Assembly: GCA_964517685.1 (NCBI GenBank)
Contig: CAZFCF010000001.1
Coordinates: 153,458-217,457, forward strand
Direction: 5' to 3'
DNA: 64,000 bases
Origin: an uncultured Gammaproteobacteria bacterium
Lineage (GTDB): Bacteria; Cyanobacteriota; Vampirovibrionia; LMEP-6097
Shown here: positions 3,776 through 64,000 of the stretch, in pieces
How positions within the stretch are numbered: the stretch's first letter is position 1
Layout of the letters: the number at the start of each line of letters is the position of its first letter
The notes under the pieces: model-generated
Databases searched by the model: none
Told to the model about the DNA's origin: nothing
The model's input: only the letters and a program-made list of their open reading frames with translations
Program-made: the position numbers and the translations under genes

Positions 3776-3797
3776 GTGTAACTGCTTATTCTATCAT

Positions 3798-3834: not shown

Positions 3835-3837
3835 GTT

Positions 3838-8864: not shown

Positions 8865-9438
8865 CTTTTAGTGCCTCCTTTAAAGCTTCTAATGCGACTT
8901 TGATTTGATAAGTTTTGGGTTTGAGTAAGAAATATTTTTGTTGAATTTTAGTGGTGATAACTAAGGTTATAAAAACTGAAAAACTTAGCCAAGCTATCAT
9001 AAACACTAAATTCTTATTGAGAAATAGAAAAATATTAGGCAGGGCTGAAAGTAATAAAAGTAAACCTGAGCTGAGAAAAATAGTCGTTCCACAAAACATT
9101 GAAAACGGTTTGGTTTTTTCTATTTCTTCGAGTCTTGGAATAAACTTCCTGATTACTTTTAAACTGGTATTGGCTTTGAGATTTTTGATTTTCTCCTGAA
9201 AACAGTTATAGACTTTATGCTCAGCTGCATGAAATTCTTTGGCTAACCTCGATAGTTCACCGTTAATAGTGCGATATGGTGGTGCACCTAGGTAAGAACC
9301 AGTCTTGATCGGAGCTAAATCCTCATTTGCATAGAAGATCTCATCGAGATCAATCTTGGCGTATGCGGTTTTTTTGCCTATTGAAAAATAAATAGCACCT
9401 GGCTCGCTGTAGCCGTCCATTCTTTGTCCCCCTGTCAA
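8767..9438 (-). CDS. hypothetical membrane protein
   Basis: 223-aa ORF with C-terminal TM helices; first gene of the minus-strand T4SS-like block. Confidence 0.3.
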   Translation of the reverse strand: MTGGQRMDGYSEPGAIYFSIGKKTAYAKIDLDEIFYANEDLAPIKTGSYLGAPPYRTINGELSRLAKEFHAAEHKVYNCFQEKIKNLKANTSLKVIRKFIPRLEEIEKTKPFSMFCGTTIFLSSGLLLLLSALPNIFLFLNKNLVFMIAWLSFSVFITLVITTKIQQKYFLLKPKTYQIKVALEALKEALKDEHISNEFSSSIRILPKEPCTTSSSHKSDLGL

Positions 9439-37226: not shown

Positions 37227-37285
37227 TGTATGACAGGTTTTTGATAGTTAATGAGGGATTGATTATGCCTAAAACTAACCTAGGA

Positions 37286-47024: not shown

Positions 47025-47489
47025 ATGAATTCAAATTTTATAAACATAGTTCTCTACCAACCCGAGATCCCGCAGAACAGTGGCAACATCGCCAGAATGT
47101 GCGTGGCAAATGATCTTAAGCTGCATTGGATTAAACCAATGGGTTTTGAAATCAGCGATAAATATCTTAAACGCTCGGCTTTAGATTATTGGGAATTTCT
47201 TGATTATCAAGTCTATGAAAGTTGGCAGGAATTTATCCAAGGAAAGGATCTCAGTAAAGTTTGGTTCTTAACAACTAAATCTACTAAAACTTTTTGGGAT
47301 GTGAAATTTTCCCAAGGTGACTATTTGGTTTTTGGTCCAGAGACTAAAGGCTTACCGATGGAACTGATGCAAACTAATTGGGATAATGCAATTACTGTAC
47401 CCATGAGTTCTGAAAATTCGCGTAGCTTGAATTTAGCTAGTACGGTACAAACCGTTTACTATGAGGCTTTTAGGCAGTTAAAAGATTAG
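47025..47489 (+). CDS. trmL: tRNA (cytidine/uridine-34 2'-O)-methyltransferase, SPOUT
   Basis: 154 aa, IVLYQPEIPQNSGNIARMC N-terminus typical of TrmL/YibK. Confidence 0.75.
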   Translation: MNSNFINIVLYQPEIPQNSGNIARMCVANDLKLHWIKPMGFEISDKYLKRSALDYWEFLDYQVYESWQEFIQGKDLSKVWFLTTKSTKTFWDVKFSQGDYLVFGPETKGLPMELMQTNWDNAITVPMSSENSRSLNLASTVQTVYYEAFRQLKD

Positions 47490-50400: not shown

Positions 50401-50890
50401 CTTCACCAATAACAGTTAAATTATCAATGATCTTATGTTCTAATAAATCTCTAGAGCTTTCTTTTAAACCAATTCCTAAGCCACCTGCACTATTATTGTC
50501 ATTTGCTTTACCCGTTGCAATTGCTGTTAGAGCTTGGAAACTAGGAAAAGCCCAATTGCCTTTTATAGTGAGTCTCGTTTTTTTATTTGAAGCCGGAGAT
50601 AGAGTAACATCTACTCCATCAAGATTTTGTCCTTGAGGATTTTCATCTATCCAATTTTGAATTCCAATTTCTCTAACATACCAAGGTATTGGTTTATGTT
50701 TTTCTTCAGTCTCACTTCCTATTCTGCCTTTTTTGAGAGCTGTAACCGCAAATAAAGCTTCTACAGATACACCTGGATGTTTGATTGCATAATAAGTTCT
50801 AAATGCTTCCCCAGCCGAGACCTGTTTTAGCTTTTTACTATTTTGGCCAGATACTTCATTTGTTGGTGATAATAATGGTGGAAATTGCAT
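47486..50890 (-). CDS. very large (1134 aa) hypothetical protein with C-terminal HExxH motif
   Basis: central TM (LALVTTSLIGLTAATTAVLWF), C-terminal AHEVAHNYGGHNNP; overlaps trmL by 4 nt. Confidence 0.5.
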   Translation of the reverse strand: MQFPPLLSPTNEVSGQNSKKLKQVSAGEAFRTYYAIKHPGVSVEALFAVTALKKGRIGSETEEKHKPIPWYVREIGIQNWIDENPQGQNLDGVDVTLSPASNKKTRLTIKGNWAFPSFQALTAIATGKANDNNSAGGLGIGLKESSRDLLEHKIIDNLTVIGEGWSVTYRIPPIEEVQKVLLQHGVEPPEAYLLSELRELNSNEYEAGTCSYVIETDNEEFIKTFAKLKDMAPHKDHPSLQNPDYHYIGIEKKTKNGVTQERPCNFRIKWHDSLKTRGELFIQGQPWSYLSNVNPEEGFFKGAEGVTLELGASGKFHHDSDRNPLNQYAFKKCIEKLTKTMNSNDRKVQLVKSFPIWSQHRDETDSNRNRNGAFILLEQIVEDIQWDFANKFTLNTLKELFPGKDFIAINNDVTEYISDEEIAELKRQGKTICPKFFTALGVPLYQKPRPIIVQEPQPINLISEVHNRQPNSKAANVAFKEVMQNLGIEVDYTILDISSNDHRGFFIELQNQLRSSAVELKLGKDGELEFIFNQNIAANLMMKPFFSKIIGDELLNQKTWIQTIRNLIFWGLENKVLQYPSLIAQLHLATFNINYDSEAKKNNLMTRIIPFINTKANEERFSFKLNDEDLEIFKTVFSFDEHNIWKPEYNPPTNEVKEKTVKNGAELAIADALAEIQRGTDPLVAFANAQEALVTLTERMAAEAAKNISVSNDPTPELNKQEDFKVNSTIVVKPIPAKKSKLALVTTSLIGLTAATTAVLWFSFMDNLLTSNVASKPVIKAKIDPEIAVSNSTKIKDKTTTSSLPHPQILIANIVTEGAKGIAKLITTGNKTLSEAEHKLQDEVIEVGQSLLKKGTKLVNETEKLKNTTIELAYDLAKRLKRIDTSKLEKEIAGFTENLPTERKDTSDQDEFTRWSQVKTYGDAPKDAEYTKGDDIATFVEKFNSHGIETDTVQVSEKDKALAKLKQKIEAAQSGKEHQIKNFKIVDNPEHRHLVQLEILKNFLHEATDVKIDTPVFIFTGNGAKGVNFQGKGIGLHKSLFDGPLAAILEVQAHEVAHNYGGHNNPNFYNTMQALLGGTIQRLFDVASKTEEERTESDKKILSLKEEWDLKANVIDKRSGFLNLKSRAYAGAHG

Positions 50891-50950
50891 TTGTATTAAA
50901 TAGAATTCTTATTTATACAAAGACAAGAGTATTTAGGCTTTTATAGTAAA

Positions 50951-52057
50951 TTACGCCGCTAAAATATCCATAGCTTTCTTCTCAAGTACAGCTCTAGGTG
51001 TTTCTATGCTATTGCCTCTGATGATTTGAACCAAAGCTTCTTTGAATAAGCTATTATTGCCGACTTTACTCATTTGATCTTTAATTGCATGAACATTGAT
51101 TCCAAGTTGTTCAAGTTCAGTAACAATTTTATCGATTGGTATATCTGTAGCTAAATCTTGGAGTACCTGTAACATAGTTGTCGAGCTATCTACAACCTTG
51201 CCGAAACTGCTAGCAATTTTTTGAGCTGGAGTTTCTGAAGATCTTTTTTGAGCTTCAGCTAAAGCTATTTGCCTTCTTTCCGCAGCTTGCTCTTCATAAG
51301 CCTTTTCTTCACTTGCAGCTATTTCATTGCGATGTTTTTCATATTGTTTTTGTTGATAAACTTTCTCTTGATACATTTTTTCTATATAACGTTTTTCCTC
51401 AAGCTTAGCTAGGTAAGCTTCTTTTTTTGCTTTGCAAGAAGATGAACTGCCAAATAAATAGCGATATGTGTTTGAAAAGAAGTTGTAGATTGGCTTGAAA
51501 AAATAATTATTAATACCAGAAATAGTTTCACTAAAATTAGAAAACACTTTAGTCACACTCGGATGAGTTACCAGCTCAGTAAATGCTGTCATCGGACTAA
51601 CTACGGCTTTTGCTCCCCATGCCATGCCTTGAGCAAGCCAGTTTGTTGCAGTCTTAATACCTGCTTCTATATTTGATTTGACGTCATTGCGAGCCATTGA
51701 AGATGGCGTGGCAATCCCTTCCTTAGATTCGGCTTTATCAATTTCAGTTGTCTCTTTGTTTGTGCCTAATAGTGCCGCTGCACCTTTAGCGACATCATCG
51801 ATACTAAAACCTGTTGTTGCTTTAAGTACATCGCTTATAGTGGGAGTTGCTGTTGTGGTTTTTTGTTCACTAACAGTTTCAGTTTTAGTTGAATTAGTAA
51901 AACTATCTTTTGGTTCTTCAACCTTTACTTCTACAGGAGGATCTGTTAATTCTGTAGTTTCAGTTGACTGCGCAGATAAAGCATTGGCCGCCTCAACTAC
52001 CCTAGTAGCGATACTTGGACCTTTAAGAATTATTTGGCTTAATAAATCTAAACTCAT
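50951..52057 (-). CDS. hypothetical protein (T/E-rich N-half, coiled-coil C-half) with repeat insertion
   Basis: 368 aa; IATPSSMARNDVK is encoded by repeat at 51684-51717. Confidence 0.45.
   Translation of the reverse strand: MSLDLLSQIILKGPSIATRVVEAANALSAQSTETTELTDPPVEVKVEEPKDSFTNSTKTETVSEQKTTTATPTISDVLKATTGFSIDDVAKGAAALLGTNKETTEIDKAESKEGIATPSSMARNDVKSNIEAGIKTATNWLAQGMAWGAKAVVSPMTAFTELVTHPSVTKVFSNFSETISGINNYFFKPIYNFFSNTYRYLFGSSSSCKAKKEAYLAKLEEKRYIEKMYQEKVYQQKQYEKHRNEIAASEEKAYEEQAAERRQIALAEAQKRSSETPAQKIASSFGKVVDSSTTMLQVLQDLATDIPIDKIVTELEQLGINVHAIKDQMSKVGNNSLFKEALVQIIRGNSIETPRAVLEKKAMDILAA
51684..51717. repeat. single repeat unit GTCATTGCGAGCCATTGAAGATGGCGTGGCAATCC in CDS
   Basis: near-identical to unit at 20907-20941. 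Confidence 0.85.
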
Positions 52058-52171
52058 AGAAAATTTTCTAAATTCCTATATATAGAAGTGTCTTTTTGAT
52101 AGGAATTTGATAGATTATAGGTGTAACTACTCATTAATCTTAACTATTCTGTGGATTAATTTATTAGAAGA

Positions 52172-52202
52172 CGGGGGATTGCTTCGCTTCGCTCGCAATG
52201 AC
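52172..52202. repeat. repeat half-unit GGGGGATTGCTTCGCTTCGCTCGCAATGAC
   Basis: contains the annotated ATG of the 52198 ORF (caATGACaATGgac). Confidence 0.8.
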
Positions 52203-53178
52203 AATGGACCCCTTAACCGCTAAAACCCATACCGCAATCATTACCTTAGCTCAGGGACAGTTTTCATATTTAAATCGAGCTGCACAAAAATTACTTGGTT
52301 GGGATATTGTTGAACTGAATAAAAATATTTCTGCATTAGCAGGTTTAAGTCCAACATTAATTAACTTTGCAAAATTACTAAAAGAAATTTTTGCTGGCAA
52401 GTTTGACACAGATTTAAAAGATTCTAAATTTAAAAGATTTGAGATTAGTCTTGAAGGTCAGTATTTTAATTTATATCTCTCGAAGCCTAATATTGATGAA
52501 CATTTGCTGGAACTAACTCCTATTGTTTATCAGGACATGAAGCAAACTACTCATGAATTGAAGCGCCCGATTCAAAACATCAAAACACTTACAGAGACCT
52601 TAATTATAGGTGCCAAGAATGATCCAGTTAAGTGTGATGAATATTTAACGAAGCTGAATTTTGAAGCTGACCGTCTCGGTACTTTAGTTAATGACATGCT
52701 CAGTTTAAGTCATATAGTAAATGGTGTAATTGATTTACATAAAGTGAGCTTGCCTCTCAAAGCTAGAGTAGATAAGGTTTTCGAGACATTAGAATCGCGT
52801 GCCAAAGAGAAAAATATTCACCTGGAGAATTTAGTCTCTAATGATTTTCATATAGCTGCTGATCAAAAATTACTAGATCATTTACTTTCTAACCTTGTCG
52901 ATAATGCAATTAAATACAACAAGCCTGATGGCAAGGTTTTAGTCTCAGCTGATTTAAGTCACATTACTATCAGAGACACTGGCTTAGGGATAGCTGAAGA
53001 AGATCAAGCAAAAATCTTTGAGCAGTTCTATAGAATCAAAGACAGAGTTCATATTCAAGGAAATGGATTAGGACTTAACATTGTCAAAGGAATTATAGAC
53101 CTACATGGCTGGCAAATTAATGTGAAATCTACTCTAGGTGAGGGTTCTGCTTTTGAGATTTCCCTATCGTCATCGTGA
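52198..53178 (+). CDS. cytoplasmic sensor histidine kinase
   Basis: H-box HELKRPIQNI, N-box DNAIKYN, G1 RDTGLGI, G2 GNGLGLNI; no TM; stop codon supplied by repeat. Confidence 0.7.
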   Translation: MTMDPLTAKTHTAIITLAQGQFSYLNRAAQKLLGWDIVELNKNISALAGLSPTLINFAKLLKEIFAGKFDTDLKDSKFKRFEISLEGQYFNLYLSKPNIDEHLLELTPIVYQDMKQTTHELKRPIQNIKTLTETLIIGAKNDPVKCDEYLTKLNFEADRLGTLVNDMLSLSHIVNGVIDLHKVSLPLKARVDKVFETLESRAKEKNIHLENLVSNDFHIAADQKLLDHLLSNLVDNAIKYNKPDGKVLVSADLSHITIRDTGLGIAEEDQAKIFEQFYRIKDRVHIQGNGLGLNIVKGIIDLHGWQINVKSTLGEGSAFEISLSSS

Positions 53179-53207
53179 GGAGCCCTGTAAGGGCGACGTG
53201 ACGATCC
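53169..53207. repeat. repeat variant GTCATCGTGAGGAGCCCTGTAAGGGCGACGTGACGATCC
   Basis: same architecture with substituted module sequence. Confidence 0.7.
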
Positions 53208-53238
53208 AGTTAAAAATACTCTGTGATAGCATTTAAGT

Positions 53239-53742
53239 GTGACTACAAACAGATTAACTGAACATTTAAAGCCGCAACAGCATCACTCTGTAAATAGAGT
53301 TTTTGATGTTTTTGATAAGCAATTAACTTGCAAACAAAAAACTGAAGCAAGAAGAATTACAGCAGCAGATCTTTTGCAACCAGTAGCTGAAATGAAATCA
53401 CTAGAAGTTTTACGTTATTTGGAAGATATAGGACTAGCGCAAAAAATTCAAGAAGAGTTTTACTATATTACTGGTAAAAAGATTAAAGTCAATGAATTAT
53501 TACTGTTTGATATGCATCGTATTGATGATAATAAGGACGTAGAATTATTAAAAGAAATCATCTCTAAAAAATTTAGAGATATCTATCAAGAAAGGCTTAC
53601 CAATGGACCAATCTTAGATATAGAAACAATTAAGGCTATTGTTCAGTATTTAAAAATTGATGACTTTCAGTTTGATGATGAGGTTCATTTTGCAAACTTA
53701 AAATTTACTAGAAGGCGCTTAGCTAAATATCTTTCAAACTAA
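53239..53742 (+). CDS. hypothetical protein
   Basis: 167-aa ORF. Confidence 0.4.
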   Translation: MTTNRLTEHLKPQQHHSVNRVFDVFDKQLTCKQKTEARRITAADLLQPVAEMKSLEVLRYLEDIGLAQKIQEEFYYITGKKIKVNELLLFDMHRIDDNKDVELLKEIISKKFRDIYQERLTNGPILDIETIKAIVQYLKIDDFQFDDEVHFANLKFTRRRLAKYLSN

Positions 53743-53761
53743 ACAAGCTACAATAATCTCT

Positions 53762-54122
53762 GCAAGTAGTTCAGGCAATCGCTTTTCCGTAAGGAGGAGA
53801 GGAAAGTCCGGGCACCGCTAGAGCTTAGGTTGCTGGTTAATTGCCAGTGCGCGTGAGCGTGAGGACAGTGCCACAGAAAGATACCGCCAAGAAATTGGTA
53901 AGGGTGCAAAGGTGAGGTAAGAGCTCACCAGCAAGATCGAGAGGTCTTGGCTCGGTAAACCCCACTGAAGGTGCAAGGTAAAGGTATTTAAGTTTAGGAT
54001 TAAAGCTGCTCGCTTCCCTAGATTTACCTGAATTCCGCTAGAGGCTAAGAGTAATCTTGGTCCCAGATAGATGATTGTTCATGATGCAAATCATTACAGA
54101 ACCCGGCTTATAGGCTACTTGC
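53762..54122 (+). ncRNA. rnpB: RNase P RNA, bacterial type A
   Basis: GAGGAAAGTCCGGGC (P4 5'), GGTAAGGGTGCAAAGGTGAGGTAAGAGCTCACC (P10/11/12), ACAGAACCCGGCTTA (P4 3'); P1 gcaagtag/ctacttgc. Confidence 0.9.
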
Positions 54123-54173
54123 AATTTTTATCAAAATACTATTTGAGCAAGCTTTGTAAGCAATGAGGTTTAT

Positions 54174-54869
54174 ATGGTAAACACTTGCTCAGTAACTGGA
54201 ACTCTTAGAATAGGGAACGTCATCGATCCTAAGGAAAAATTTCAAAGAGATTTTAAATTATCTATTTCGCAAGCTTGGAAGGCTGGTGTTACAGCAGACG
54301 TCAAGCCTTTAATGGAACTTCTCTCTAATAATTCTAATCATGTAACAGATGCAAATCTAGATACTTTAGCAAATCTTTTTAAAAGACTTACACCAGAGCA
54401 AGGAATTGAAATTGCTACTTCTAAATATATACAAGACGCACTAGCTAGCTTTGATAGTGGTGATCAAGGAATTACATCACTTTCTATGGCTCTTGAATCT
54501 ATGAAGTCACATACATTAGGTGATGAAAAGGCTTTTGATGGGATAACTAAAGTGATTCATGATATAGATGTACAAAAATTACAAAGTGAGATATCAGCAG
54601 CTCCTAATACTAAGTCAGAAATTAATAAAAAAAGAGATTCTATTGCATATATCATTAATGTTGCTTTGCAAAAAATACCTGAATTTGACGATAAACTTAA
54701 TGAACTTATATCTACGGAGATCGTAGCTACGGAATTACCAAAGCAGGGAATGCATCCAAGTATGGCTGTATTTTACGCTATGAGAGAATTAGCTGATGTT
54801 AGATTTAATACTGATAAATTAAAATGGCATCTTTTTTTATTTGCTAATAGAAATTCAATAGCTGCTTAA
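54174..54869 (+). CDS. hypothetical protein
   Basis: 231-aa ORF between rnpB and the first rnpB-3' direct repeat. Confidence 0.4.
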   Translation: MVNTCSVTGTLRIGNVIDPKEKFQRDFKLSISQAWKAGVTADVKPLMELLSNNSNHVTDANLDTLANLFKRLTPEQGIEIATSKYIQDALASFDSGDQGITSLSMALESMKSHTLGDEKAFDGITKVIHDIDVQKLQSEISAAPNTKSEINKKRDSIAYIINVALQKIPEFDDKLNELISTEIVATELPKQGMHPSMAVFYAMRELADVRFNTDKLKWHLFLFANRNSIAA

Positions 54870-54874
54870 AATCG

Positions 54875-54938
54875 TCATCCTGAGGGTAAAGAAAGCAAGT
54901 GCCGTCATTGCGAGCCCTCGAAGAGGGCGTGGCAATCC
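54875..54938. repeat. palindromic repeat (GTCATCCTGAGG..GTCATTGCGAGCCCTCGAAGAGGGCGTGGCAATCC)
   Basis: module composition as above. Confidence 0.85.
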
Positions 54939-55051
54939 ATCTTAGGGAAGTTTTGATAAAGCTGCTTTATCTTTAAAACCAATAGCTAATTTTGACTCTC
55001 ATACAGTACTTTTATATTTAGATGATTTGGGAATAAAAAAATAGTATTCAA

Positions 55052-55073
55052 ATAGGCTACTTGCGATTTTTGT
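55052..55073 (+). repeat. direct repeat of rnpB 3' end (ATAGGCTACTTGCGATTTTTGT)
   Basis: matches 54110-54131 ataggctacttgcaatttttat (20/22). Confidence 0.8.
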
Positions 55074-55142
55074 TATGTCAAAGAAATTTTACCGTTTTGG
55101 AATTGCGATTAGGATTTGGAGATCCAGTATGTTGATTAAGTC

Positions 55143-55175
55143 TTGACGAATATCAACGCTTTAAGTTAAGATAAT
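55143..55175 (+). promoter_or_regulatory. sigma70-like promoter, -10 ends 6 nt before GTG start (leaderless)
   Basis: TTGACG-18 nt-TAAGATAAT. Confidence 0.5.
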
Positions 55176-55178
55176 CTA

Positions 55179-57824
55179 GTGTCTTTTTTAGAACAATTAT
55201 CAAGATTTTCTATTTTAACGCGACCCACTTCAAAATTAGGCAAAGTTTTAAAAGAAGTTCATCCTTATTCATCATCTGATAAAAATAGCTACGATGAGAT
55301 TTTAAGAAGATTAGGTCCTGTATTTGATAGTTTAGACAAACTTTTTCAAAGGACTAGGAATGGATATGATGACAAAGAAATTATTGAATTATCAGCTAAA
55401 TATACATTTTTAAAAGAAAAATTAAATACGAAGAAAACACCTTTACCAGAGAAAAACAAATATCTTCTAGAATTCAAAAACCTGATTCATGGAACTAATA
55501 TATTGAATCAATTCTATGATTTACTTCAATCTGAAAAAGTACAAGCATTTAATATTAATCGACAACGTCATCCTACAATTCAACTCTTTTTTGATGGATT
55601 AAACTTTAAAGGAAAAAATTTACAGAATATTGTTTTTAGGAATGCAAAAATTATAGATTCTAATCTTTGTGAAATTGATTTAACAGATTCAGATTGTATT
55701 GAAACTGTATTTTCAAAATCAGCTCTATATAAATTAAATTTTACTGAATCTCAATTAAATTCAGCTACCTTTACGAAAGTAAATGGTTCCAATATTAACT
55801 TCACCGATTCAAATTTACCTAAAGCTAAATTTGAAAATTGTGAACTTTTTAAAGCTAATTTTTGTGGAGCAAATCTTAGTAATGTTGAAATAAAAGATTC
55901 TTCGCTTTATGAAGCAAACTTTAGTAAGGCAGACCTGAGTCAAGCTCAAATAAATAAATTAAAATCTCATAATTCAAATTTTGAAAGAGCAATTTTCAAG
56001 AATACCAATCTCTCTAACTCTTTTTTATTTGATGCAAATTTTAAAAATGCAGAATTAACATCAACTGAATTTAATAATGTTGATTTAACTGGTGCTGATT
56101 TTAGTGGAGCCAAACTTTTGAAAGTTAATTTCTATCACTGTAATCTCACGGGTGCAAATTTTAGGAACTGTGATCTTTACCGTATAACAAATCAACAGCT
56201 TGATCAAATTATAAATCCCCTATCTGTTCGTAATGTTAATTTTCAGGAGGGAATTAAATGGTTATTTAAAAATATTGATTCTAAAGAACTAAGTAATATT
56301 ACTACTCATAAAATAATTAGATTTTTAAATATAGACTCTAATTTAGTAAGCCGTATTGATCCAACATTGCTAAGTAAAATTAATACTATTAACCCAAAAG
56401 AATTTATTGCAAGATTATTTTTGATTTATGAAATAAATATTTTAATCGAGAGAGTTTACAGAGAAAATCATAAAACTTTGGATCAACTCTGCAGAGTTTT
56501 ATATAATTCATGTGGAAATAATCTTGATGATTTAATACTTGAAGGCAAGCTCTTAAGTAATCATCTTAGTTCAGGCAATGAAAGTATTTTAAGAGACTCT
56601 TTGGAATTGGTTTTTGATACTTTTGTTTTACCAAGATTAGAAAAGTTTTTAGATACAGCTGCAATTAAAAAGTTAAAGCAATGGCAAGTATCAAGCTTTA
56701 AAGAAAAATTAATGCCATATTTTATGATTGCAATTTCTCAAAATAGATTTTTTGATCCATCTTCTGATTATTCTAAGTTAAAAGGAGAAGTAGCTTCACT
56801 ACCAAAGAGTGCAAATTATAAAATGCCGTCATTGTTACTTAATCTATCAAGGGGCATTCATCATCCTGTTATAGCTTATGATACAGCCGTAAGACATATA
56901 CTTCCTGAAGGCTCTTGGTATCCCATTTTAATTTCTGCAAATAATCAAGTTGAAATAACTTTGCCAAATACTGATAAAAAGTATTTAGTTAGAAATTTGA
57001 TCAATTACAAAGATTTTGATTACGAAACTTTTGTATTAGGTCATTGTATCGGTCGAGGTGTATTTTACGTTAACAAAGCAAAAGAAGGAGGACATCATTA
57101 TTTTTCTATTAGAGAAGCAGAAACTGGTATACCAATATCTACGGTGGAATTTGCTCTAAATGAGCGCTTACAATTACAAAAAATGCAACATAAAGGAAAA
57201 AATAATTTGCCACCAAGTGATGCTGCCAAAAAGATATTGGAAATATTTTTACGAGGTGTTAAAGACGGTACTTATCCTCTATCTTTAAAACAAACTGGTA
57301 AAGATTCCAGTGTTGAAAAATTATCTGTTTTTGAGAATGCAGTTGGTACTTTTTGTGATGATGATACTGAAGTCACAAAGAATCGTAGAATATTTGATAC
57401 AACTAATGTACACTCAGTTCAAGTAAGAGCTTGGATTAAATTAGCGCAACCTAAAAATGGCTATTTAATAAATCGACTACAAAATGGCGAAACTTATAAA
57501 TTGAATCCTGGTATTGGTACCACTAATAATTTAGGCGAAACAATTCAACTTGGTGGCTATAGAGCTAAGCCAGAAGGTATTCCTTATGATAACTATTTTA
57601 TACCTAACTCCTGTAGAGGGGATCTTAGTTTAGAATCTATTAATCCAAGAAAAGTGAATGATAAACGTTTGAGATTTTCACAATTTTCTGGAAATGATTT
57701 GGCTGAGATTGACAAAGGTATAGAAAGATTTTTTAATACCAAAGTTACAGATCAAATGAGTTTTGATGATCTAATAAAATCTACTATTATAGAAGTTGTG
57801 CAAACAGAAGAACCTCCTCTTTAA
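55179..57824 (+). CDS. pentapeptide-repeat protein, paralogue 1 (881 aa)
   Basis: A(D/N)LxxA(N/D)F repeats over residues ~150-340; conserved N-domain and ~540-aa C-domain shared with paralogue 2; GTG start. Confidence 0.7.
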   Translation: MSFLEQLSRFSILTRPTSKLGKVLKEVHPYSSSDKNSYDEILRRLGPVFDSLDKLFQRTRNGYDDKEIIELSAKYTFLKEKLNTKKTPLPEKNKYLLEFKNLIHGTNILNQFYDLLQSEKVQAFNINRQRHPTIQLFFDGLNFKGKNLQNIVFRNAKIIDSNLCEIDLTDSDCIETVFSKSALYKLNFTESQLNSATFTKVNGSNINFTDSNLPKAKFENCELFKANFCGANLSNVEIKDSSLYEANFSKADLSQAQINKLKSHNSNFERAIFKNTNLSNSFLFDANFKNAELTSTEFNNVDLTGADFSGAKLLKVNFYHCNLTGANFRNCDLYRITNQQLDQIINPLSVRNVNFQEGIKWLFKNIDSKELSNITTHKIIRFLNIDSNLVSRIDPTLLSKINTINPKEFIARLFLIYEINILIERVYRENHKTLDQLCRVLYNSCGNNLDDLILEGKLLSNHLSSGNESILRDSLELVFDTFVLPRLEKFLDTAAIKKLKQWQVSSFKEKLMPYFMIAISQNRFFDPSSDYSKLKGEVASLPKSANYKMPSLLLNLSRGIHHPVIAYDTAVRHILPEGSWYPILISANNQVEITLPNTDKKYLVRNLINYKDFDYETFVLGHCIGRGVFYVNKAKEGGHHYFSIREAETGIPISTVEFALNERLQLQKMQHKGKNNLPPSDAAKKILEIFLRGVKDGTYPLSLKQTGKDSSVEKLSVFENAVGTFCDDDTEVTKNRRIFDTTNVHSVQVRAWIKLAQPKNGYLINRLQNGETYKLNPGIGTTNNLGETIQLGGYRAKPEGIPYDNYFIPNSCRGDLSLESINPRKVNDKRLRFSQFSGNDLAEIDKGIERFFNTKVTDQMSFDDLIKSTIIEVVQTEEPPL

Positions 57825-57857
57825 TAAGTTCCTCTGGAGCGATACTCTTCCGTAAAT

Positions 57858-57978
57858 AATTTACTAGTCCCAATATGGGTCAATCTGCCATCGGCAGAGT
57901 CTTGAATTAATAAGGCAGTCTCGGTGTCTCTGATACCGCCAGCAGCTTTGATAGAAATATTTCTTTTGGAACCATATT
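57858..57978 (-). pseudogene. deoC 3' fragment (duplicate of 60877-61000)
   Basis: ~95% identical to internal C-terminal segment of deoC (KAAGGIRDTETALLIQDSADGRLTHIGTS). Confidence 0.75.
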
Positions 57979-57987
57979 ATTAAGTAA

Positions 57988-58012
57988 GCTTATAGGCTAC
58001 TTGCGATTTCTG
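57988..58012 (+). repeat. direct repeat of rnpB 3' end (GCTTATAGGCTACTTGCGATTTCTG)
   Basis: 17/17 match to rnpB ggcttataggctacttgc. Confidence 0.8.
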
Positions 58013-58023
58013 CCATTTAGGTA

Positions 58024-58056
58024 TTGACAAGTATTACCGCTTCGGATTAAGATAAT
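58024..58056 (+). promoter_or_regulatory. sigma70-like promoter, leaderless GTG start (paralogue 2)
   Basis: TTGACA-18 nt-TAAGATAAT then GTG 4 nt after. Confidence 0.5.
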
Positions 58057-58059
58057 CTG

Positions 58060-60849
58060 GTGGCGTTTTTAGAACGATTAGCTAATTTTTCTACTTTAAC
58101 TCAGCCTTCTACAAGGCTTGGAAAAATTCTTGCCGGAATTCATCCCTATTTGATACTTAAGAAAAAAAATGATTATAATGACATATTAAGAAAATTACAA
58201 CCCGTCTTTAATAGCTTGGATAGGCTTTTTCAAATAGGGCAAAGAAATTCTGATAATAAAGAGATTAGAGAATTATCATTAGAATATAGATCTTTAGGAC
58301 AACAATTACAATCTACGAAAGCAACTTTAGAACAAAAAAAGAATTATCTTTTAGAGTTCAAAAAATTAGTTTATAAAACTAATAGACTGAATCAATTTCA
58401 TGATTTACTTCAATCTGAGAATGTAAGAGTATTTAACGCTAACAGACAACTATATCCTACAATTCAAACTCTTTTTCATGGGTTAAACCTTAAAAGAAAA
58501 AATTTACAAAATATCGATTTTAGAAATACGAATATTGCGCAATCAAGTCTTTCTGAAATTGATTTAACAGATTCAGATTGTATAGGAATTAAATTTTCGG
58601 ATCTAGCTTTATATAAATTAAATTTCACGAATGCCCAATTAGATTCAGCTAGCTTTACAGAAGTAAAAGGTTCTAATATTGATTTCACTAATTCTCATTT
58701 ACCTGAAGCTAAATTCGAAAATTGTAAGCTCTTAAAAGCAAATTTTCATGAAGCAGATCTCAGTGAGGTCATAATAAAGAATTCCTCTTTCCAGGAAGCA
58801 GATTTTAGTGATGCAGAACTGATATCAACTAAGTTTAGAGACGTTGATTTAACTGGTGTTGATTTTAGTGGAACCAAACTTTTTAAAGTTGATTTCTTTG
58901 GAAGCAATCTTATGGGTGCAAATTTTAAAAATGCAGAATTAATGTCAACTGAGTTTGGAAGCGTTGATTTAACTGGTGCTGACTTTAAAGGAGCCAAGCT
59001 TTCTAACGCTGATTTTGATAGCAGCAATCTTATGGGTGCAGATTTTAGTAATTGTAATCTTCGCAATGTAAAAATCACAAGTCGGCAGCTTGAGCAGATT
59101 ATAAATCCTCTCTCTGCTAATAATGTTAATTTCAGGGAAGGAATCAAATGGTTATTTAAAAATATTGACTCTAAAGAATTAAGTAATCTTAGAGTTCATC
59201 AAGTAATTAGATTTTTAGATATTGACTTTTCTTTGATAAATAGTATTGATCCATCATTGCAAAGCAAAATTAATACAATTGATCCTAGAGAATTAATTGC
59301 AAGATTATATTTGATTTCTGAGACAGACATTTTTAGCAAGCATGTTTGCGCAGAAAATCATCAAGCTCGGAATCAACTCTGTAGAGTTTTATATAATTCA
59401 TGTGGAAATAATCTTGAGGATTTAATACATGAAGGTAAATTAGTTAATAGTGATCTTCGCTCAAATAATGCCAGTGATTTTAAAGACTCTTTGAACCTAG
59501 TTTTTGATACTTTTGTTTTACCAAGATTAGAAAAGTTTTTAGATACAACTGCAACTAAGGAGTTAAAGCAATGGCAGTTATCAAAATTTAGAGAAAAACT
59601 AATTCCATATTTGGTTATTGCAATTTCTCAAAATAGATTTTTTGATCCAAGCTCTGATTATTCTAAGCTAAAGGGGAAAGTAGCTTCACTACCTAAAAAT
59701 GCAAACTATAAAATGCCATCATTATTACTCAATATATCAAAAGGTATTCACAACCCTGTTGTCGCTTATGCTACAGCAGTAAGGCATATTAGTCCTGAAG
59801 GCTCATGGCATCCTATTTTAAATTCTGTGGCTAATCAAGTTGAAATCACTTTACCTAATAGTAATAGAAGATACTTAGTTAAAAATTTGATCAATTACAA
59901 AGATTTTGATTATGAATCTTCTGCATTAGGTCATTGCATCGGTCAAGGTGTACGTTACGTTAACAAAGCAAAGGGAGGTAAATACCATTATTTTTCTATA
60001 AGAGAAGCAGAAACGGGCAAGCCAGTATCTACCGTGGAGTTTGCTTTAGGACATGATGGTAGTCCTAGGGGTCCTTTTGAAGATCGTGATATTAGAGCCA
60101 GAAATAGTACTTCAATAGACAATCATTCTGATTATTTTTTACAACAAATCCAGCATAGAGGAAAAAGAAATTCGATACCAACTGCAGATGCCAAAGAGAT
60201 CCTGAAGATATTTTTACAAGGTGTCAAAGACGGTACTTATCCTATATCCTTAAAACCAATTGGTAAAGATTCTAGTACTGAAAAATTATCTGCTTTTGAA
60301 AATACTATTGGTACTTCTTTTGATGATACCGAAGTTATAAATAATCGTAAAATGTTTGATACAACTAATGTACATTCTATTCAAGCAAGAGCTTGGATTA
60401 AATTAGCGCAACCTAAAGACAGCCATTTAGAAAATCGACTACAGGATGGTGAAATTCAAGAATTAAACCCAGGTATTGGTGTCATTGACGAGGAAACTGG
60501 CGAAACAATTCAGCTTGGTGGCTATAGAGCCAAGCCAGAAGGTATTCCTTATGATAACTATTTTATACCTAACTCCTGTAGAGGAGATCTTAGTTTAGAA
60601 TCTATTAATCCAAGAAAAGTGAATGATAAACGTTTGAGATTTTCACAATTTTCTGGAAATGATTTGGCTGAGATTGACAAAGGTATAGAAAGATTTTTTA
60701 ATACCAAAGTTACAGATCAAATGAGTTTTGATGATCTAATAAAATCTACTATAGAAACTGTGCAAAAAGAAGAACTTCCGAAAAGAGATCTTGCGCACGG
60801 AGATCTTTTGATGATGGAGTTGGCTGCAATTATTGGGGATAATCAATAA
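58060..60849 (+). CDS. pentapeptide-repeat protein, paralogue 2 (929 aa, longer repeat tract)
   Basis: ~60% identity to paralogue 1 in N-domain, near-identical in last ~100 aa; extra pentapeptide units. Confidence 0.7.
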   Translation: MAFLERLANFSTLTQPSTRLGKILAGIHPYLILKKKNDYNDILRKLQPVFNSLDRLFQIGQRNSDNKEIRELSLEYRSLGQQLQSTKATLEQKKNYLLEFKKLVYKTNRLNQFHDLLQSENVRVFNANRQLYPTIQTLFHGLNLKRKNLQNIDFRNTNIAQSSLSEIDLTDSDCIGIKFSDLALYKLNFTNAQLDSASFTEVKGSNIDFTNSHLPEAKFENCKLLKANFHEADLSEVIIKNSSFQEADFSDAELISTKFRDVDLTGVDFSGTKLFKVDFFGSNLMGANFKNAELMSTEFGSVDLTGADFKGAKLSNADFDSSNLMGADFSNCNLRNVKITSRQLEQIINPLSANNVNFREGIKWLFKNIDSKELSNLRVHQVIRFLDIDFSLINSIDPSLQSKINTIDPRELIARLYLISETDIFSKHVCAENHQARNQLCRVLYNSCGNNLEDLIHEGKLVNSDLRSNNASDFKDSLNLVFDTFVLPRLEKFLDTTATKELKQWQLSKFREKLIPYLVIAISQNRFFDPSSDYSKLKGKVASLPKNANYKMPSLLLNISKGIHNPVVAYATAVRHISPEGSWHPILNSVANQVEITLPNSNRRYLVKNLINYKDFDYESSALGHCIGQGVRYVNKAKGGKYHYFSIREAETGKPVSTVEFALGHDGSPRGPFEDRDIRARNSTSIDNHSDYFLQQIQHRGKRNSIPTADAKEILKIFLQGVKDGTYPISLKPIGKDSSTEKLSAFENTIGTSFDDTEVINNRKMFDTTNVHSIQARAWIKLAQPKDSHLENRLQDGEIQELNPGIGVIDEETGETIQLGGYRAKPEGIPYDNYFIPNSCRGDLSLESINPRKVNDKRLRFSQFSGNDLAEIDKGIERFFNTKVTDQMSFDDLIKSTIETVQKEELPKRDLAHGDLLMMELAAIIGDNQ

Positions 60850-61712
60850 GTATTTTTACTTTCCGGCTCAGTAAACAATTTACTAGTCCCAATATGGGTC
60901 AATCTGCCATCGGCAGAGTCTTGAATTAATAAGGCAGTCTCAGTATCTCTGATACCGCCAGCAGCTTTGATAGAAATATTTCTCTTTGGATCATATTTGT
61001 TTAGTAGCTTTGCAATTAAGGAAATCAAGTTAGGTGAACTTGTTTTCAAAACCACTCCTGATTCCTCTTTGCTGCCTATATAACCAGTTGAGTTTTTATA
61101 AGCAAATTTTATTCTAGCTACTACATCAGGGTTACTTTCATAAAATCTTGCAACAACATCACTAAATATTTTTGCAGTTCTTTCAATTTCTTCGTCATTT
61201 AAAATTTCACAAGAAAAAATTGGTTTCATCCAAAATTTTTCTTCCGGGCGCTCTAATGAGAATTTATATAAGGTTTCAATTAAGCCTTGCAATTCTTTTT
61301 GTAAATTATCAAGATCACTAATTTTCATTACTGGATCAAGTTCTATAGCGCCGTCTCCAAGAGCATTAGCGGCTTCTACCTTCTTAGCTTCAAGGCTAAA
61401 ATTTCCTATTGAGGATTTTATTTTTTCTAAATTGTTAGCATCAGTTATTTCATATTTATTTTCAAGGAAACCAATTACGGCTGAAAGTCTGTAGTGTTGA
61501 TTTAGATTCATCAATTCTTTTACTTTAGATGGACGTATACATGCAGAATGTAAATCTTTATCTAAAACTGTATCTGCTAGAGTTTTTAGTTCTGCCAAAC
61601 TAGCGCTAGGATTTAAATTTGTTAAATCGATTAAATTATCAACTGTGCTTTCCATAATATCTATTAGTAACTGGATTGCCACGCCCATTCCATGGGCTCG
61701 CAATGACGGCAC
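60843..61712 (-). CDS. deoC: deoxyribose-phosphate aldolase
   Basis: C-terminal IKAAGGIRDTETALL..RLTHIGTSKLF matches DeoC KASGGIRT..RIGTS; N-terminal 20 aa (MPSLRAHGMGVAIQ) are repeat-encoded, real start probably MESTVDNL. Confidence 0.65.
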   Translation of the reverse strand: MPSLRAHGMGVAIQLLIDIMESTVDNLIDLTNLNPSASLAELKTLADTVLDKDLHSACIRPSKVKELMNLNQHYRLSAVIGFLENKYEITDANNLEKIKSSIGNFSLEAKKVEAANALGDGAIELDPVMKISDLDNLQKELQGLIETLYKFSLERPEEKFWMKPIFSCEILNDEEIERTAKIFSDVVARFYESNPDVVARIKFAYKNSTGYIGSKEESGVVLKTSSPNLISLIAKLLNKYDPKRNISIKAAGGIRDTETALLIQDSADGRLTHIGTSKLFTEPESKNTY

Positions 61713-61746
61713 CTGTTCTTAACTTGCACCCATACAGCAATGACGC
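61673..61746. repeat. palindromic repeat (GGATTGCCACG..GGGCTCGCAATGACGG..CAGCAATGACGC)
   Basis: module composition as above. Confidence 0.8.
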
Positions 61747-61747
61747 A

Positions 61748-62011
61748 CTAATCCTCACTGAACCTTTCCTTAATTGCCTCTTTCAGCTCTTCATCTTGCA
61801 CTACAATAAAAAAATTCATTATGCCGTTCCCGGTATAACCGATGGCTTTGTAACCAGCGTCAGTGTCTCTAACTAGACGAATAGTACCTGGACTGTATCT
61901 GTGTCTAGCACACTCGCAAATGCCTAAAACTAATTTAATGCCTTGTTTCTCTAACCATGAGAAGTTTTTTTTGAGTTCCTTGGGAACTGATTTATGTTTA
62001 GCTCGTACCAT
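61748..62011 (-). CDS. small hypothetical protein
   Basis: 87-aa ORF with CxC..H pattern. Confidence 0.35.
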   Translation of the reverse strand: MVRAKHKSVPKELKKNFSWLEKQGIKLVLGICECARHRYSPGTIRLVRDTDAGYKAIGYTGNGIMNFFIVVQDEELKEAIKERFSED

Positions 62012-62084
62012 TTGTTCATAATTAGCGCTAGCTTAAATTATATTAACAAATAAAATCTCCTAAGCCTCGTTAAAATAAAAGGAT

Positions 62085-64000
62085 ATGGCGGAAACTAAGG
62101 CTCCAATGACGCTGGCAGAGCCAAAACATATAGCTCTTCATTTACATACGGAATTCTCGCTGCTTGATGGTGCAAGTAGGGTAGAGGACCTTTGCAAAAA
62201 AGCTAAGGCTTCGGGAATGCCGGGTCTGGCGATTACAGATCACGGCACTATGTTTGGTGCTTATAAGTTTTATCACGAGGCTGTGAAGGCAGGACTTAAA
62301 CCTATAGTTGGTTGTGAAGTTTATGTAGTAAATAACGATCACACCCTAAAAGGCAAAGAGCATAAATATAAGCTTTATCATTTGGTCTTACTTGCAAAGA
62401 ACGACCAAGGCTACAAAAATCTAATCAAGATCGTTTCAGAATCTTGCATTAATGGTTTCTATTACAAACCCAGAATCTCGAAAGAATATTTAAAACAATA
62501 CTCTGGTGATTTGGTTGCACTTTCAGCTTGCCTTGGTGGTGAGGTGAATAATCTTGCTTTGAATAATAGTTACGAAGATGCGCGTGATGCAGCTCAAGGT
62601 TATAAAGAAATTTTTGCTGAGGATTTCTATTTAGAAATCATGGATCATTATTATCCAGAAGATCGTAAGGTTAACCCTGTAATCTTGAGGATCGCAAAGG
62701 AGCTTGGTATCAAGGTTGTAGCCACTAATGATAGTCACTACACAAATATAGATGATGCTAATTCACATGATGCACTTCTGTGTTTGCAAACTCAAAAATA
62801 CATCTCGGATATGAAGCGCATGAAATTTTCTTCGCATGAATTTCTCAAGACTGAAGAAGACATGTTTGAGCTTTTCAAAGATCATGTTGACGAAACAGAA
62901 ATTCGCAAAGCCATCTTGGATAATCCAACGGAAATCTATAATAAAATTTCTGATTACCAACTGCTCAGTAAGCCAGGTATGCATATGCCTGATCCGCATA
63001 TTCCAGAAGGACATACTTTTGAAACTTACTTGAAAGAAGTTAGTTATGAAGGCGCGAGAAAGCGCTTTGGTGAATTAACCCCGACAATTATTGAGCGTTT
63101 GGATTTTGAACTTACAGTAATGAATGATTCAGGCTTTGCTTCTTACTTCTTGGTTGTCTGGGATTTTATAGATTGGGCGCGTAAAAATAGTATTCCTGTG
63201 GGACCTGGAAGAGGCTCTGCTGCTGGATCTCTGGTGGCTTACTGCCTGGGAATTACTAATATAGATCCACTGAAGTATGATTTGCTTTTTGAAAGATTCT
63301 TGAATCCAGAGCGTAAGTCAATGCCCGATATTGATACGGATTTTTGTATTGAGAGACGTGAGGAAGTTATTAATTATGTCCGCGAGAAATATGGTAACGA
63401 TAGCGTTTGCCAGATTATCACTTTTAATAGACTTACATCTAAAGCAGTAATCAAGGACATGGCAAGGGTTCTAGAGTATCCCTATGCTAAAGCCGAGGAA
63501 CTGGCTAAATTAATTCCTGTAGTTCGTGGTAAACCTAGATCAATTTCTTGGATGCTTGAGAACCATGATGAATTTGCAAAGAAATACAAAGGTGATCCAG
63601 AGGCTAAGGAAGTAATTAATCTTGCACTGAAGAACGAAGGTTTGAATAAGAATTTCGGTGTGCATGCTGCCGGCGTAATTATTGCAGACCAGCCTATAGA
63701 CCAGCTTGTACCAATATCTAAAAGTAATGATGGCAATATCATCACTCAGTTCTCTATGGATGAATGCGCGTCTATGGGTCTACTCAAGATGGACTTTTTG
63801 GGCTTGCGTAACTTAACGATGATCAAGAAAGCTATCGATATCATTGAAATTAATTCTGCGCCAGGTACTCCAAGGATAGACATAGATTCGATTTCACTGG
63901 ATGATGAAAAAACTTATGACATGATTTGCTCTGGTAATTTAGCTGGAATATTTCAGTTAGAGACTTCTGCTGGTATGAAGCAGATAGCAAGAGATCTTGC
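62085..64000 (+). CDS. dnaE: DNA polymerase III alpha subunit, N-terminal part (runs off window)
   Basis: PHP domain HLHTEFSLLDGA, ITDHGTMFG; open to the end of window in this frame. Confidence 0.9.
   Translation, partial: MAETKAPMTLAEPKHIALHLHTEFSLLDGASRVEDLCKKAKASGMPGLAITDHGTMFGAYKFYHEAVKAGLKPIVGCEVYVVNNDHTLKGKEHKYKLYHLVLLAKNDQGYKNLIKIVSESCINGFYYKPRISKEYLKQYSGDLVALSACLGGEVNNLALNNSYEDARDAAQGYKEIFAEDFYLEIMDHYYPEDRKVNPVILRIAKELGIKVVATNDSHYTNIDDANSHDALLCLQTQKYISDMKRMKFSSHEFLKTEEDMFELFKDHVDETEIRKAILDNPTEIYNKISDYQLLSKPGMHMPDPHIPEGHTFETYLKEVSYEGARKRFGELTPTIIERLDFELTVMNDSGFASYFLVVWDFIDWARKNSIPVGPGRGSAAGSLVAYCLGITNIDPLKYDLLFERFLNPERKSMPDIDTDFCIERREEVINYVREKYGNDSVCQIITFNRLTSKAVIKDMARVLEYPYAKAEELAKLIPVVRGKPRSISWMLENHDEFAKKYKGDPEAKEVINLALKNEGLNKNFGVHAAGVIIADQPIDQLVPISKSNDGNIITQFSMDECASMGLLKMDFLGLRNLTMIKKAIDIIEINSAPGTPRIDIDSISLDDEKTYDMICSGNLAGIFQLETSAGMKQIARDL

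Follow-up and report, generated by a model that had tools for sequence, protein, structure and literature searches.

We describe here a locus on the chromosome of an uncultured bacterium in which rnpB, the gene for RNase P RNA, is separated from its convergent neighbor, a deoC-like aldolase gene, by a 6.7-kb insertion that carries an orphan gene (ORF231) and two tandem genes for large pentapeptide-repeat proteins (PRP1 and PRP2). The sequence analyzed, hereafter the window, is a stretch of 64,000 nucleotides (positions 153,458 to 217,457 of contig CAZFCF010000001.1, assembly GCA_964517685.1); all coordinates are those of the window. The insertion is specific to this lineage, and the PRP genes within it form a head-to-tail duplication of ~2.9-kb units whose 3' parts were partly homogenized recently by gene conversion. 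The window is chromosomal, judged by the housekeeping genes gap, hisZ/G, lptG, serS, lpxC, pyrB, thyX, and dnaE; its GC content is 34%, compared to 26-31% in the PRP genes. The seryl-tRNA synthetase is closest to proteins from metagenome-assembled genomes, and the best-named matches (~71% identity) are labeled Candidatus Melainabacteria or Cyanobacteria; in sequence similarity, the host chromosome thus appears nearest to Melainabacteria.

The genes and repeats that make up the locus, from rnpB to the deoC-like gene, are these (ORF, open reading frame; aa, amino acids):

53763-54125, plus strand: rnpB, encoding RNase P RNA of bacterial class A (full-length match to Rfam RF00010, 246.2 bits); its 3' end is the left border of the insertion
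54110-54129, plus strand: rnpB-tip repeat copy 0, the genuine rnpB 3' end, A variant TTGCAATTT
54174-54869, plus strand: ORF231, an orphan gene of 231 aa with no Pfam or PHROGs match, absent from every related locus
54886-54940, no strand assigned: REP/RPE-like palindromic element, core GTCATTGCGAGCCC...CGTGGCAATCCA, with an inverted partner at 61672-61715
55052-55072, plus strand: rnpB-tip repeat copy 1, G variant, the start of unit 1
55143-55172, plus strand: promoter-like motif TTGACG-18-TAAGAT, conserved in unit 2 (consensus match only)
55179-57824, plus strand: PRP1, 881 aa
57825-57991, minus strand: dead copy of the deoC 3' end (codons ~235-289), matching 60843-61010
57987-58012, plus strand: rnpB-tip repeat copy 2 (G variant) and duplication junction
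58024-58053, plus strand: promoter-like motif TTGACA-18-TAAGAT (consensus match only)
58060-60849, plus strand: PRP2, 929 aa, same architecture as PRP1
60843-61712, minus strand: deoC-like aldolase gene, intact and convergent, the right border of the insertion

Relatives were found by a search with the deoC-like protein, after which the encoding contigs were fetched. Four related lineages have an orthologous locus:

L005/L006: deoC identity 72%; the detected rnpB ends 19 nt from the deoC stop codon
L008-L010: deoC identity 42-44%; L008 and L010 have a detected rnpB at 150 nt from the deoC stop codon
L011/L012: deoC identity 46%; same gene order, with a 475-nt gap
L013/L014: deoC identity 49%; same gene order, with a 428-nt gap

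In L011-L014, which were not scanned for rnpB, its presence was deduced solely because the interval separating deoC from a histidine kinase gene could hold rnpB and nothing more. The window is collinear with L005 over 50935-54130 and 60868-63994 (78-84% identity), its rnpB is syntenic with that of L005, and 54131-60867 has no counterpart in L005. ORF231, PRP1, and PRP2 therefore constitute a 6.7-kb lineage-specific insertion between rnpB and deoC, which is the main new result of this analysis. Because an empty site exists in related genomes, the steps by which the locus was assembled can be ordered.

Most of the insertion consists of two head-to-tail units, 55052-57991 and 57992-61010, each ~2.9 kb long and collinear throughout; eight collinear repeat families have start-to-start spacings of 2881-3019 nt. 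The tandem duplication proposed in an initial annotation, which had been made from the sequence alone, is thereby borne out. Each unit starts with 18-22 nt copied from the rnpB 3' end and continues with a promoter-like motif and an intact PRP gene. The units are 77-87% identical over 2.7 kb by blastn and ~79% identical overall, with many private indels. Segment by segment, the identities are:

unit 1 55052-55072 and unit 2 57992-58012: 20/21
unit 1 55136-57158 and unit 2 58017-60048: 76.8%
unit 1 57174-57817 and unit 2 60139-60779: 86.9%
unit 1 57849-57978 and unit 2 60868-60997: 93.8%

The motif TTGAC(G/A)-18-TAAGAT ends 6 nt ahead of a GTG start codon, and the promoter-proximal regions, 55136-55178 and 58017-58059, agree at 32 of 43 positions. 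The promoter annotated here earlier is accordingly conserved as a motif in both units, but it is a consensus match only, and such matches are no commoner in the region than in shuffled sequence. A third, decayed unit upstream of 55052 (a deoC or PRP remnant) was considered and rejected, the local alignment score of 40 not being significant against 31 +/- 5 for shuffled sequence; a weak ORF167-like match at 54961-55035 (E 0.038) was likewise set aside, having no nucleotide support.

The junction between the units, at 57987-57992, reads ...TAAGTAAGCTT followed directly by ATAGGCTACTTGCG..., with deoC codon ~235 (...AGCTT) abutting the rnpB tip (ATAGG...; ATAGGCTAC...). At the parental sites, the breaks fall in deoC between ...TAGTAGCTT and TGCAATT (61007-61010) and in rnpB between ...CCCGGCTT and ATAGGCTAC (54106-54109), and the four nucleotides GCTT are common to both. 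To judge from these sequences, the shared GCTT would be the signature of microhomology-mediated illegitimate recombination. The left breakpoint falls in true rnpB; a PRP gene therefore would have lain directly downstream of rnpB at the time of duplication.

Unit 1 closes with a truncated, dead copy of deoC, in which 145 of 156 aligned bases are identical between 57825-57991 and 60843-61010; by tblastn, it shares 86% aa identity with deoC residues 240-289 (E 5e-22), and it reaches the deoC stop-codon region. Its core (57852-57964) is identical to the live gene at 110 of 113 positions, though it is non-coding in unit 1, while its right, outer edge (57965-57991) has diverged (20/26). The fragment had been annotated as identical to an internal 3' segment of deoC; it is a truncated copy closing unit 1, as stated, but it is 93-97% identical and represents the 3' end of the gene. 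A similar correction applies to the gene into which unit 2 runs, which is intact and convergent but matches nearly the full TIGR00126 profile at 53.7 bits, under the equivalog cutoff of 117.3, and has no match at E <= 1 to the Pfam DeoC family. Some homologues of its product carry PF01791, and the gene is best called deoC-like. Its stop codon is overlapped by the 3' end of PRP2, by 7 nt.

The 18-mer ATAGGCTACTTGCRATTT, which comprises the 3' strand of the rnpB P1 helix and the first bases past the gene, is found at three places in the window and no more (54110, 55052, and 57992), compared to an expectation of 0.18 copies. With a bona fide rnpB at 53763-54125, this agrees with the initial annotation, in which an rnpB 3' repeat was placed at the head of each unit. 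The 18-mer is single-copy in L005/L006 and is not conserved in the rnpB genes of more distant relatives, so that the repeat copies derive from the rnpB of this clade itself. One position of the tip is a G (TTGCGATTT) in the rnpB of L005/L006 and in both downstream copies and an A in the present rnpB. Within the insertion, only the 0.94-kb module formed by ORF231 and the REP-like element has tip copies on both sides, as a 20-nt direct repeat (54110-54129 and 55052-55071, 19/20 identical); each of the two repeats is followed by spacer-like sequence that resembles the ancestral rnpB-deoC spacer. Most simply, ORF231 would have been a later insertion at the rnpB tip that displaced the original tip (G) to 55052 and supplied a new one (A). 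ORF231 has no similarity to the PRP proteins. A search for a fourth tip copy beside deoC, like the right-hand attachment site (attR) of an integrated element, gave an alignment score equal to that of shuffles (P = 0.6), and we found no RNA structure around the tip copies (z-scores 0.22 and -0.07). The octamer TTGCRATT, the core of the tip repeat, is present at 55062-55069, 55104-55111, 58002-58009, and 61008-61015, with CTGCAATT at 60824-60831. It thus recurs in the unit 1 leader and the deoC breakpoint region, where ~0.8 chance copies are estimated; the excess may be a coincidence or may point to a preferred recombination motif.

In both PRP1 and PRP2, an N-terminal helical region (residues ~1-130) precedes a pentapeptide beta-helix (residues ~131-335), which is followed by a C-terminal region containing a PcfJ-like core (residues ~597-685 of PRP1). 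The Pfam Pentapeptide family (PF00805) matches PRP1 at 104.2 bits and PRP2 at 117.8 bits (gathering cutoff 20.2), and PcfJ (PF14284) matches PRP2 at 26.0 bits and PRP1 at 21.8-22.5 bits, on either side of the gathering cutoff of 25. The repeat region aligns without gaps, with ~39 units in each protein (~195 aa, residues ~141-335); the difference in pentapeptide repeat number, and the repeat-number variation read into it, that had been ascribed to the pair are therefore absent. The 48-residue difference in length comes instead from a loop of ~25 residues in the PcfJ core, a C-terminal tail of 21 residues (60 nt), and small indels. Three segments of PRP2 stand out in the comparison:

58797-59036, plus strand: two tandem 120-nt blocks of 8 pentapeptides each (Tandem Repeats Finder, period 120, 2 copies, 81% matches)
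60049-60135, plus strand: ~25 extra codons in the loop of the PcfJ-like core, between two beta strands in the model
60780-60839, plus strand: 60 nt encoding the C-terminal extension, absent from unit 1

The first block, 58797-58916, is a paralogue of the block that follows it (pairwise identities 78-79%) and is as distant from it as from the single matching block of PRP1, while the PRP1 block at the corresponding position (55913-56032) is unrelated, with 46-52% identity. This 40-aa segment is an old replacement, non-orthologous between the copies. Distant homologues have a loop of intermediate length, and PRP1 has probably lost loop sequence; the tail difference likewise looks to be a 60-nt deletion in PRP1.

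The C-terminal 541 residues were searched by exhaustive HMMER against 1.84 billion representatives. The search returned the paralogue and 40 other proteins, three with the full architecture at 31-33% identity and the remainder with the core only. Among the 41 aligned homologue sequences, 38 match PcfJ at E <= 0.001, six have ankyrin repeats, one has leucine-rich repeats (LRR), and three have pentapeptide repeats. The three full-architecture homologues are distant, metagenomic, and single-copy, and neither rnpB nor deoC lies near them. The conserved C-terminal region of ~540 aa first noted in these two proteins is common to both copies, with the core motif E...L.HC(I/V)G...Y......G..H(Y/I)FS...ST.E...Q..G..N; the most conserved C-terminal motif of the family, P(Y/F)DNYFIPN..RG, lies further on, in the conversion tract described below. 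Closer relatives were sought in several ways: a protein search over 5.8 billion sequences found the paralogue alone, a search of contig collections for close orthologues found one unrelated Crocosphaera pentapeptide protein, and two metagenome scans for close orthologues or strains found none. PRP1 itself is filed in a 90%-identity cluster led by an unrelated 56-aa signal-peptide-like protein, a clustering artefact because of which the PRP1 query missed itself in the protein search.

AlphaFold2 predicts the C-terminal region with a mean predicted local distance difference test score (pLDDT) of 79.6 and a predicted template modeling score (pTM) of 0.77, and the full-length protein with 65.4 and 0.41, respectively. 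In the latter model, residues ~131-335 form a regular beta-helix (pLDDT 90-97), with strands at a 20-residue period in a predicted right-handed quadrilateral fold. With Foldseek, this modeled helix matches HetL (E 2e-10), QnrB1, AlbG, and MfpA (E 7e-9 to 1e-7), and the beta-helix of NleL (E 2.4e-6); its net charge is 0 to -8, not markedly acidic. The C-terminal region has no sequence match in the PDB and no Foldseek fold match under E 0.4. A recurrent weak resemblance of its alpha/beta core to GNAT-like folds (Foldseek, PDB) is a lead rather than a result. The best matches in BFVD are predicted phage PcfJ-like proteins (E 8e-5 to 6e-4, with low TM-scores), and a single marginal match in PHROGs belongs to a family of unassigned function. 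No signal peptide or hydrophobic segment was detected in the PRP proteins (maximum KD19 1.2). The proteins are probably soluble, and the beta-helix would be a scaffold that presents the PcfJ-like domain; by analogy, the ankyrin and LRR fusions among the homologues suggest a role in protein targeting or as an effector.

Divergence between PRP1 and PRP2 is not uniform along their length. The proteins are 66% identical overall, ~60% identical in the first 250 residues, and 100% identical over PRP1 residues 786-870, and this confirms the mosaic pattern already annotated. Nei-Gojobori estimates of synonymous (dS) and nonsynonymous (dN) divergence, block by block, are:

N-terminal helical region: dS 0.82, dN/dS 0.39
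repeat domain, two blocks: dS 0.65 and 0.57, dN/dS 0.31 and 0.46
C-terminal region, part 1: dS 0.37, dN/dS 0.49
C-terminal region, part 2 (PcfJ core): dS 0.59, dN/dS 0.19, dN 0.11
C-terminal region, part 3: dS 0.37, dN/dS 0.64
recent conversion tract, unit 1 side, 57534-57784, plus strand (PRP1 residues 786-870): dS 0.06, dN = 0
recent conversion tract, unit 2 side, 60499-60749, plus strand: the partner of the preceding segment

The two sides of the 251-nt tract are identical at 248 positions (98.8%) and differ at 2 of 28 four-fold sites. Its 5' edge is sharp: immediately before it, differences are densely clustered and there is a 3-nt indel. The longest identical run is 171 nt; when the variable sites were shuffled 10,000 times, the longest runs reached 64 nt for the whole gene and 78 nt for the C-terminal half. 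The three differences in the tract (A/G, T/C, and G/A) are linked to diverged flanks within 90 nt. Protein constraint cannot explain the tract because the constrained PcfJ-like core combines a low dN (0.11) with an ordinary dS (0.59). A recent gene conversion between the paralogues is thus well supported by the sequence comparison; the initial annotation had proposed ongoing gene conversion or recombination. Beyond the coding sequence, the unit edges are old and the 3' core recent, because the deoC core is 110/113 identical whereas its edge and the promoter region have diverged to 20/26 and 32/43; the 3' homogenization may represent one patchy event or two. The direction of the exchange, and with it which unit was the donor, we can only infer. 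In all orthologous blocks dN/dS is 0.19-0.64, and both genes are intact: both copies are under purifying selection. Positive selection was considered and rejected; dN/dS exceeds 1 only in the non-orthologous 40-aa block, where the old replacement accounts for it, and in an 11-codon tail.

We consider it about 70% probable that a lineage-specific 6.7-kb insertion arose between rnpB and deoC, that the PRP gene was tandemly duplicated inside it, and that the copies were later partly homogenized. The data show the duplication, its junction, the empty site of the relatives, the conversion tract, and the purifying selection; the order, mechanism, and direction of the events in this history are what we infer. 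A single PRP gene would have arrived between the convergent rnpB and deoC genes. Illegitimate recombination at the GCTT microhomology would then have linked a point ~165 nt inside deoC with one 22 nt ahead of the rnpB 3' end; the resulting ~2.9-kb duplicate would take in the tip of rnpB, the promoter region, the PRP gene, and the 3' end of deoC. The copies would have diverged under purifying selection (dS 0.37-0.82), with the block replacement in the repeat domain, the loop indel, and the tail deletion. The 0.94-kb ORF231 module would subsequently have inserted at the rnpB 3' end, leaving the original tip at 55052. Lastly, a recent non-reciprocal homologous recombination would have copied ~250 nt of 3' coding sequence from one unit into its neighbor, together with ~113 nt of the deoC fragment.

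Several points weigh against this history. Nothing but the GCTT microhomology and the G/A variant speaks for the proposed order of the duplication and the ORF231 insertion. At 57992 the 18-mer is kept without a change, while the adjoining intergenic sequence is ~74% identical and heavy in indels; such conservation is mildly unexpected for a neutral relic, with an estimated probability of about 0.01. The contigs of the nearest relatives, L015 (deoC 77%) and L007 (74%), end in REP-like elements exactly at the deoC stop codon. The only other assembly reached, contig NODE_1291 of ERZ3430527 in the European Nucleotide Archive (ENA), is a ~6x (cov 6.1) short-read assembly, 100% identical to the window over 48060-60931; no second strain was found, and this contig ends inside the repeated deoC segment. 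The evidence for the array accordingly depends on the phasing of short reads over an exact repeat of 171 nt.

The alternative that survives best, though we regard it as unlikely, is serial site-specific integration, in which the rnpB tip is an attachment site and ORF231, PRP1, and PRP2 are stacked modules, the PRP genes having diverged before they arrived; the model is that of tRNA-seeded islands, in which each newer element moves the older ones inward. The same 18-22-nt tip does head every module, the whole block is missing from the relatives, a 19/20 direct repeat brackets the ORF231 module, and the PRP genes are lower in GC than the window. Stacked elements parted by partial copies of a target RNA, with integrase-less remnants, are found likewise in the tycheposons of Prochlorococcus (10.1101/2020.12.28.424599). 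Integration in series, however, predicts N+1 copies of the repeat, and none lies between PRP2 and deoC, as the search for an attR-like copy showed; neither the insertion nor the scanned window ORFs include an integrase or excisionase. The diverged edge of the deoC fragment fits an old duplication junction formed in situ rather than an att site, and the 18-mer matches the rnpB of this clade, not that of distant relatives. A broader speculation, to which we also give little credence, is that recombination or attachment is concentrated at the rnpB 3' tip in this Melainabacteria-like lineage, and that the tip would seed a small flexible island much as tRNA and tmRNA genes do for tycheposon-type islands. 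The cargo would then be an undescribed family of modular, effector-like PRP/PcfJ proteins, the tandem copies would swap their 3' segments, and recombination within the identical tract could release a ~2.9-kb circle.

An assembly artefact is improbable. In this explanation, the array or its near-identical tract would come from misjoined reads of two strains, or of a chromosome and an episome, and the low-coverage short reads, the termination of the ENA contig within the repeated deoC segment, and the path of a de Bruijn graph over a 171-nt exact repeat, which is ambiguous in principle, all leave room for it. On the other hand, copies that are ~79% identical with many private indels are not one locus collapsed or duplicated, the unique junction of the deoC fragment and the rnpB tip is found in the ENA contig and the window alike, and three private substitutions in the tract are linked to diverged flanks within 90 nt. 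A third contig contains an exact PRP1 and no exact PRP2. As the repeats broke one metagenome assembly, copy number and phasing here are not trustworthy without long reads.

The analogy to contingency or antigenic-variation loci drawn in the initial annotation finds no support, and we rate it as very improbable that programmed reshuffling and repeat-number change vary an exposed protein here. In its favor are a single clear conversion tract, the lack of orthology between the copies over a 40-aa block of the repeat domain, and the fusions of the same domain to ankyrin repeats and LRRs among the homologues, as in host-interaction proteins. Against this, the number of repeat units is equal, and Tandem Repeats Finder finds no simple-sequence repeats in 54000-62000, its only results there being the 2 x 120-nt block and, within deoC, a repeat of 12 nt x 2; the gene pair has a single run of >= 8 identical bases, A8 at 58162. 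Such inverted repeats as were found are AT-rich, short, and far from perfect, and the promoter-like sites do not lie between the arms of any of them, as an invertible promoter would. A tblastn search of the window with PRP1 and PRP2 finds only the two full-length genes, each with its promoter-like motif, and no silent cassettes. The genes are intact, orthologous blocks all have dN/dS below 1, conversion affected the conserved C-terminal region rather than a variable surface segment, and no signal peptide or hydrophobic segment is present. No recombinase, integrase, excisionase, or reverse transcriptase was found among the scanned window ORFs, and ORF231, PRP1, and PRP2 have no recombinase domain. 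PcfJ-like targets of diversity-generating retroelements have been mentioned (PMC5758913). The tract did not arise from such an element, given that its differences are not confined to adenines and that the scanned ORFs include no reverse transcriptase. What the locus shows is gene-family evolution of the ordinary kind, and nothing in it points to a switching system. Least probable of all is an origin of the mosaic in uneven selective constraint along an old duplicate: the tract does hold the most conserved C-terminal motif of the family, yet its synonymous and four-fold sites are near-identical too (dS 0.06; 2/28), the more constrained PcfJ core has a dS of 0.59, and the non-coding deoC core is homogenized likewise.

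Beyond the deoC-like gene lie an 87-aa ORF and dnaE:

61748-62011, minus strand: 87-aa ORF between the deoC-like gene and dnaE
from ~62079: dnaE

The 87-aa ORF product is 97.7% identical to its L005 orthologue; its neighbors deoC and ORF167 are at 72% and 42%. Upstream of rnpB, an orphan ORF of 1134 aa with no family match (47486-50890, minus strand) is missing from the syntenic L005 locus, where the flanks 47476 and 50935 are adjacent, and is a second lineage-specific insertion, 3 kb upstream of the rnpB-deoC one. Giant uncharacterized proteins are interspersed among core genes at 34650-43153 (minus strand), where three orphan ORFs of 858, 847, and 925 aa with no Pfam or NCBIfam match lie in a row. 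An AbiEii-type nucleotidyltransferase toxin (44525-45298, minus strand; PF08843, 66 bits), with an upstream partner ORF of 205 aa (45291-45908), probably forms a type IV toxin-antitoxin or abortive-infection pair. An ORF at 9515-10648 (minus strand) resembles NAD(P)-dependent glycerol-1-phosphate dehydrogenase (NF002022, 207 bits, cutoff 413), an enzyme family of archaeal-type lipids in a bacterial genome. A VirB4/AAA_10-like ATPase (5626-8409, minus strand; PF12846; NF045975, 129 bits, under its cutoff) lies among orphan genes at 2648-9438, and this cluster may represent a module for type IV secretion or a conjugation-like process; the first PcfJ to be named was that of a conjugative plasmid.

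REP/RPE-like elements are scattered through the window, the core GTCATTGCGAGC...CGTGGCAATCCA having 24 matches in 64 kb compared to 1.6 expected. Copies, for example at 20907, 25919, 28144, 43512, 47003, 51683, 54896-54939, and 61672-61715, often lie at gene ends or overlap ORF termini, and others occur in the relatives L005, L006, L007 (1995-2005), L013, and L015 (995-1005).

The locus is a clean textbook case of a lineage-specific gene that would have been acquired, duplicated via microhomology, and partly re-homogenized by conversion, and it gains interest from its acquisition site, the rnpB 3' tip, and its cargo, an uncharacterized pentapeptide/PcfJ-like family. To our knowledge, and short of a survey of the literature, insertion at rnpB has received little discussion; our literature searches on rnpB as an integration site and on PcfJ function returned nothing usable.

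Gene conversion between bacterial paralogues is familiar from tufA/tufB in enterobacteria and babA/babB in Helicobacter pylori. As in these pairs, both PRP paralogues are full-length and have diverged over most of their length, but one segment is near-identical, which would be due to non-reciprocal homologous recombination. Unlike them, the PRP copies are directly tandem, and only the 3' ~250 nt and the core of the pseudogene have been homogenized. The insertion resembles the islands at tRNA and tmRNA genes and the tycheposons (10.1101/2020.12.28.424599) in being lineage-specific and lying directly 3' of a stable RNA gene, in the short direct copies of the tip that part its modules, in its integrase-less cargo, and in the empty site of the relatives. 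It differs in that the target is rnpB, the repeat is just 18-22 nt long, no repeat is found at the distal end, no integrase or remnant of one was detected, and one boundary between modules is a duplication junction that holds a deoC fragment.

Stand-alone beta-helices of ~180-240 aa are typified by HetL, QnrB1, AlbG, and MfpA, some of which are DNA mimics. The ~39 pentapeptide units of the PRP proteins are predicted to form a similar right-handed beta-helix (pLDDT > 90), but this helix is internal to a protein of 881-929 aa, is not markedly acidic, and has no link to gyrase. A repeat beta-helix followed by a large C-terminal domain is also the plan of NleL/SopA-type effectors, a resemblance of architecture and predicted fold; the C-terminal domain of the PRP proteins is PcfJ-like, not a HECT-like ligase, and the NleL match is via the beta-helix only. 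We know of no function for the PcfJ-like family (PF14284; PcfJ of pCF10 and phage homologues). With it the PRP proteins share the conserved core pattern, while a pentapeptide fusion is otherwise seen in only three other proteins, distant and metagenomic (31-33% identity). Between the PRP proteins and their homologues, the PcfJ-like domain is fused to three different protein-interaction repeat scaffolds, a hint of a design in which a targeting module delivers a payload.

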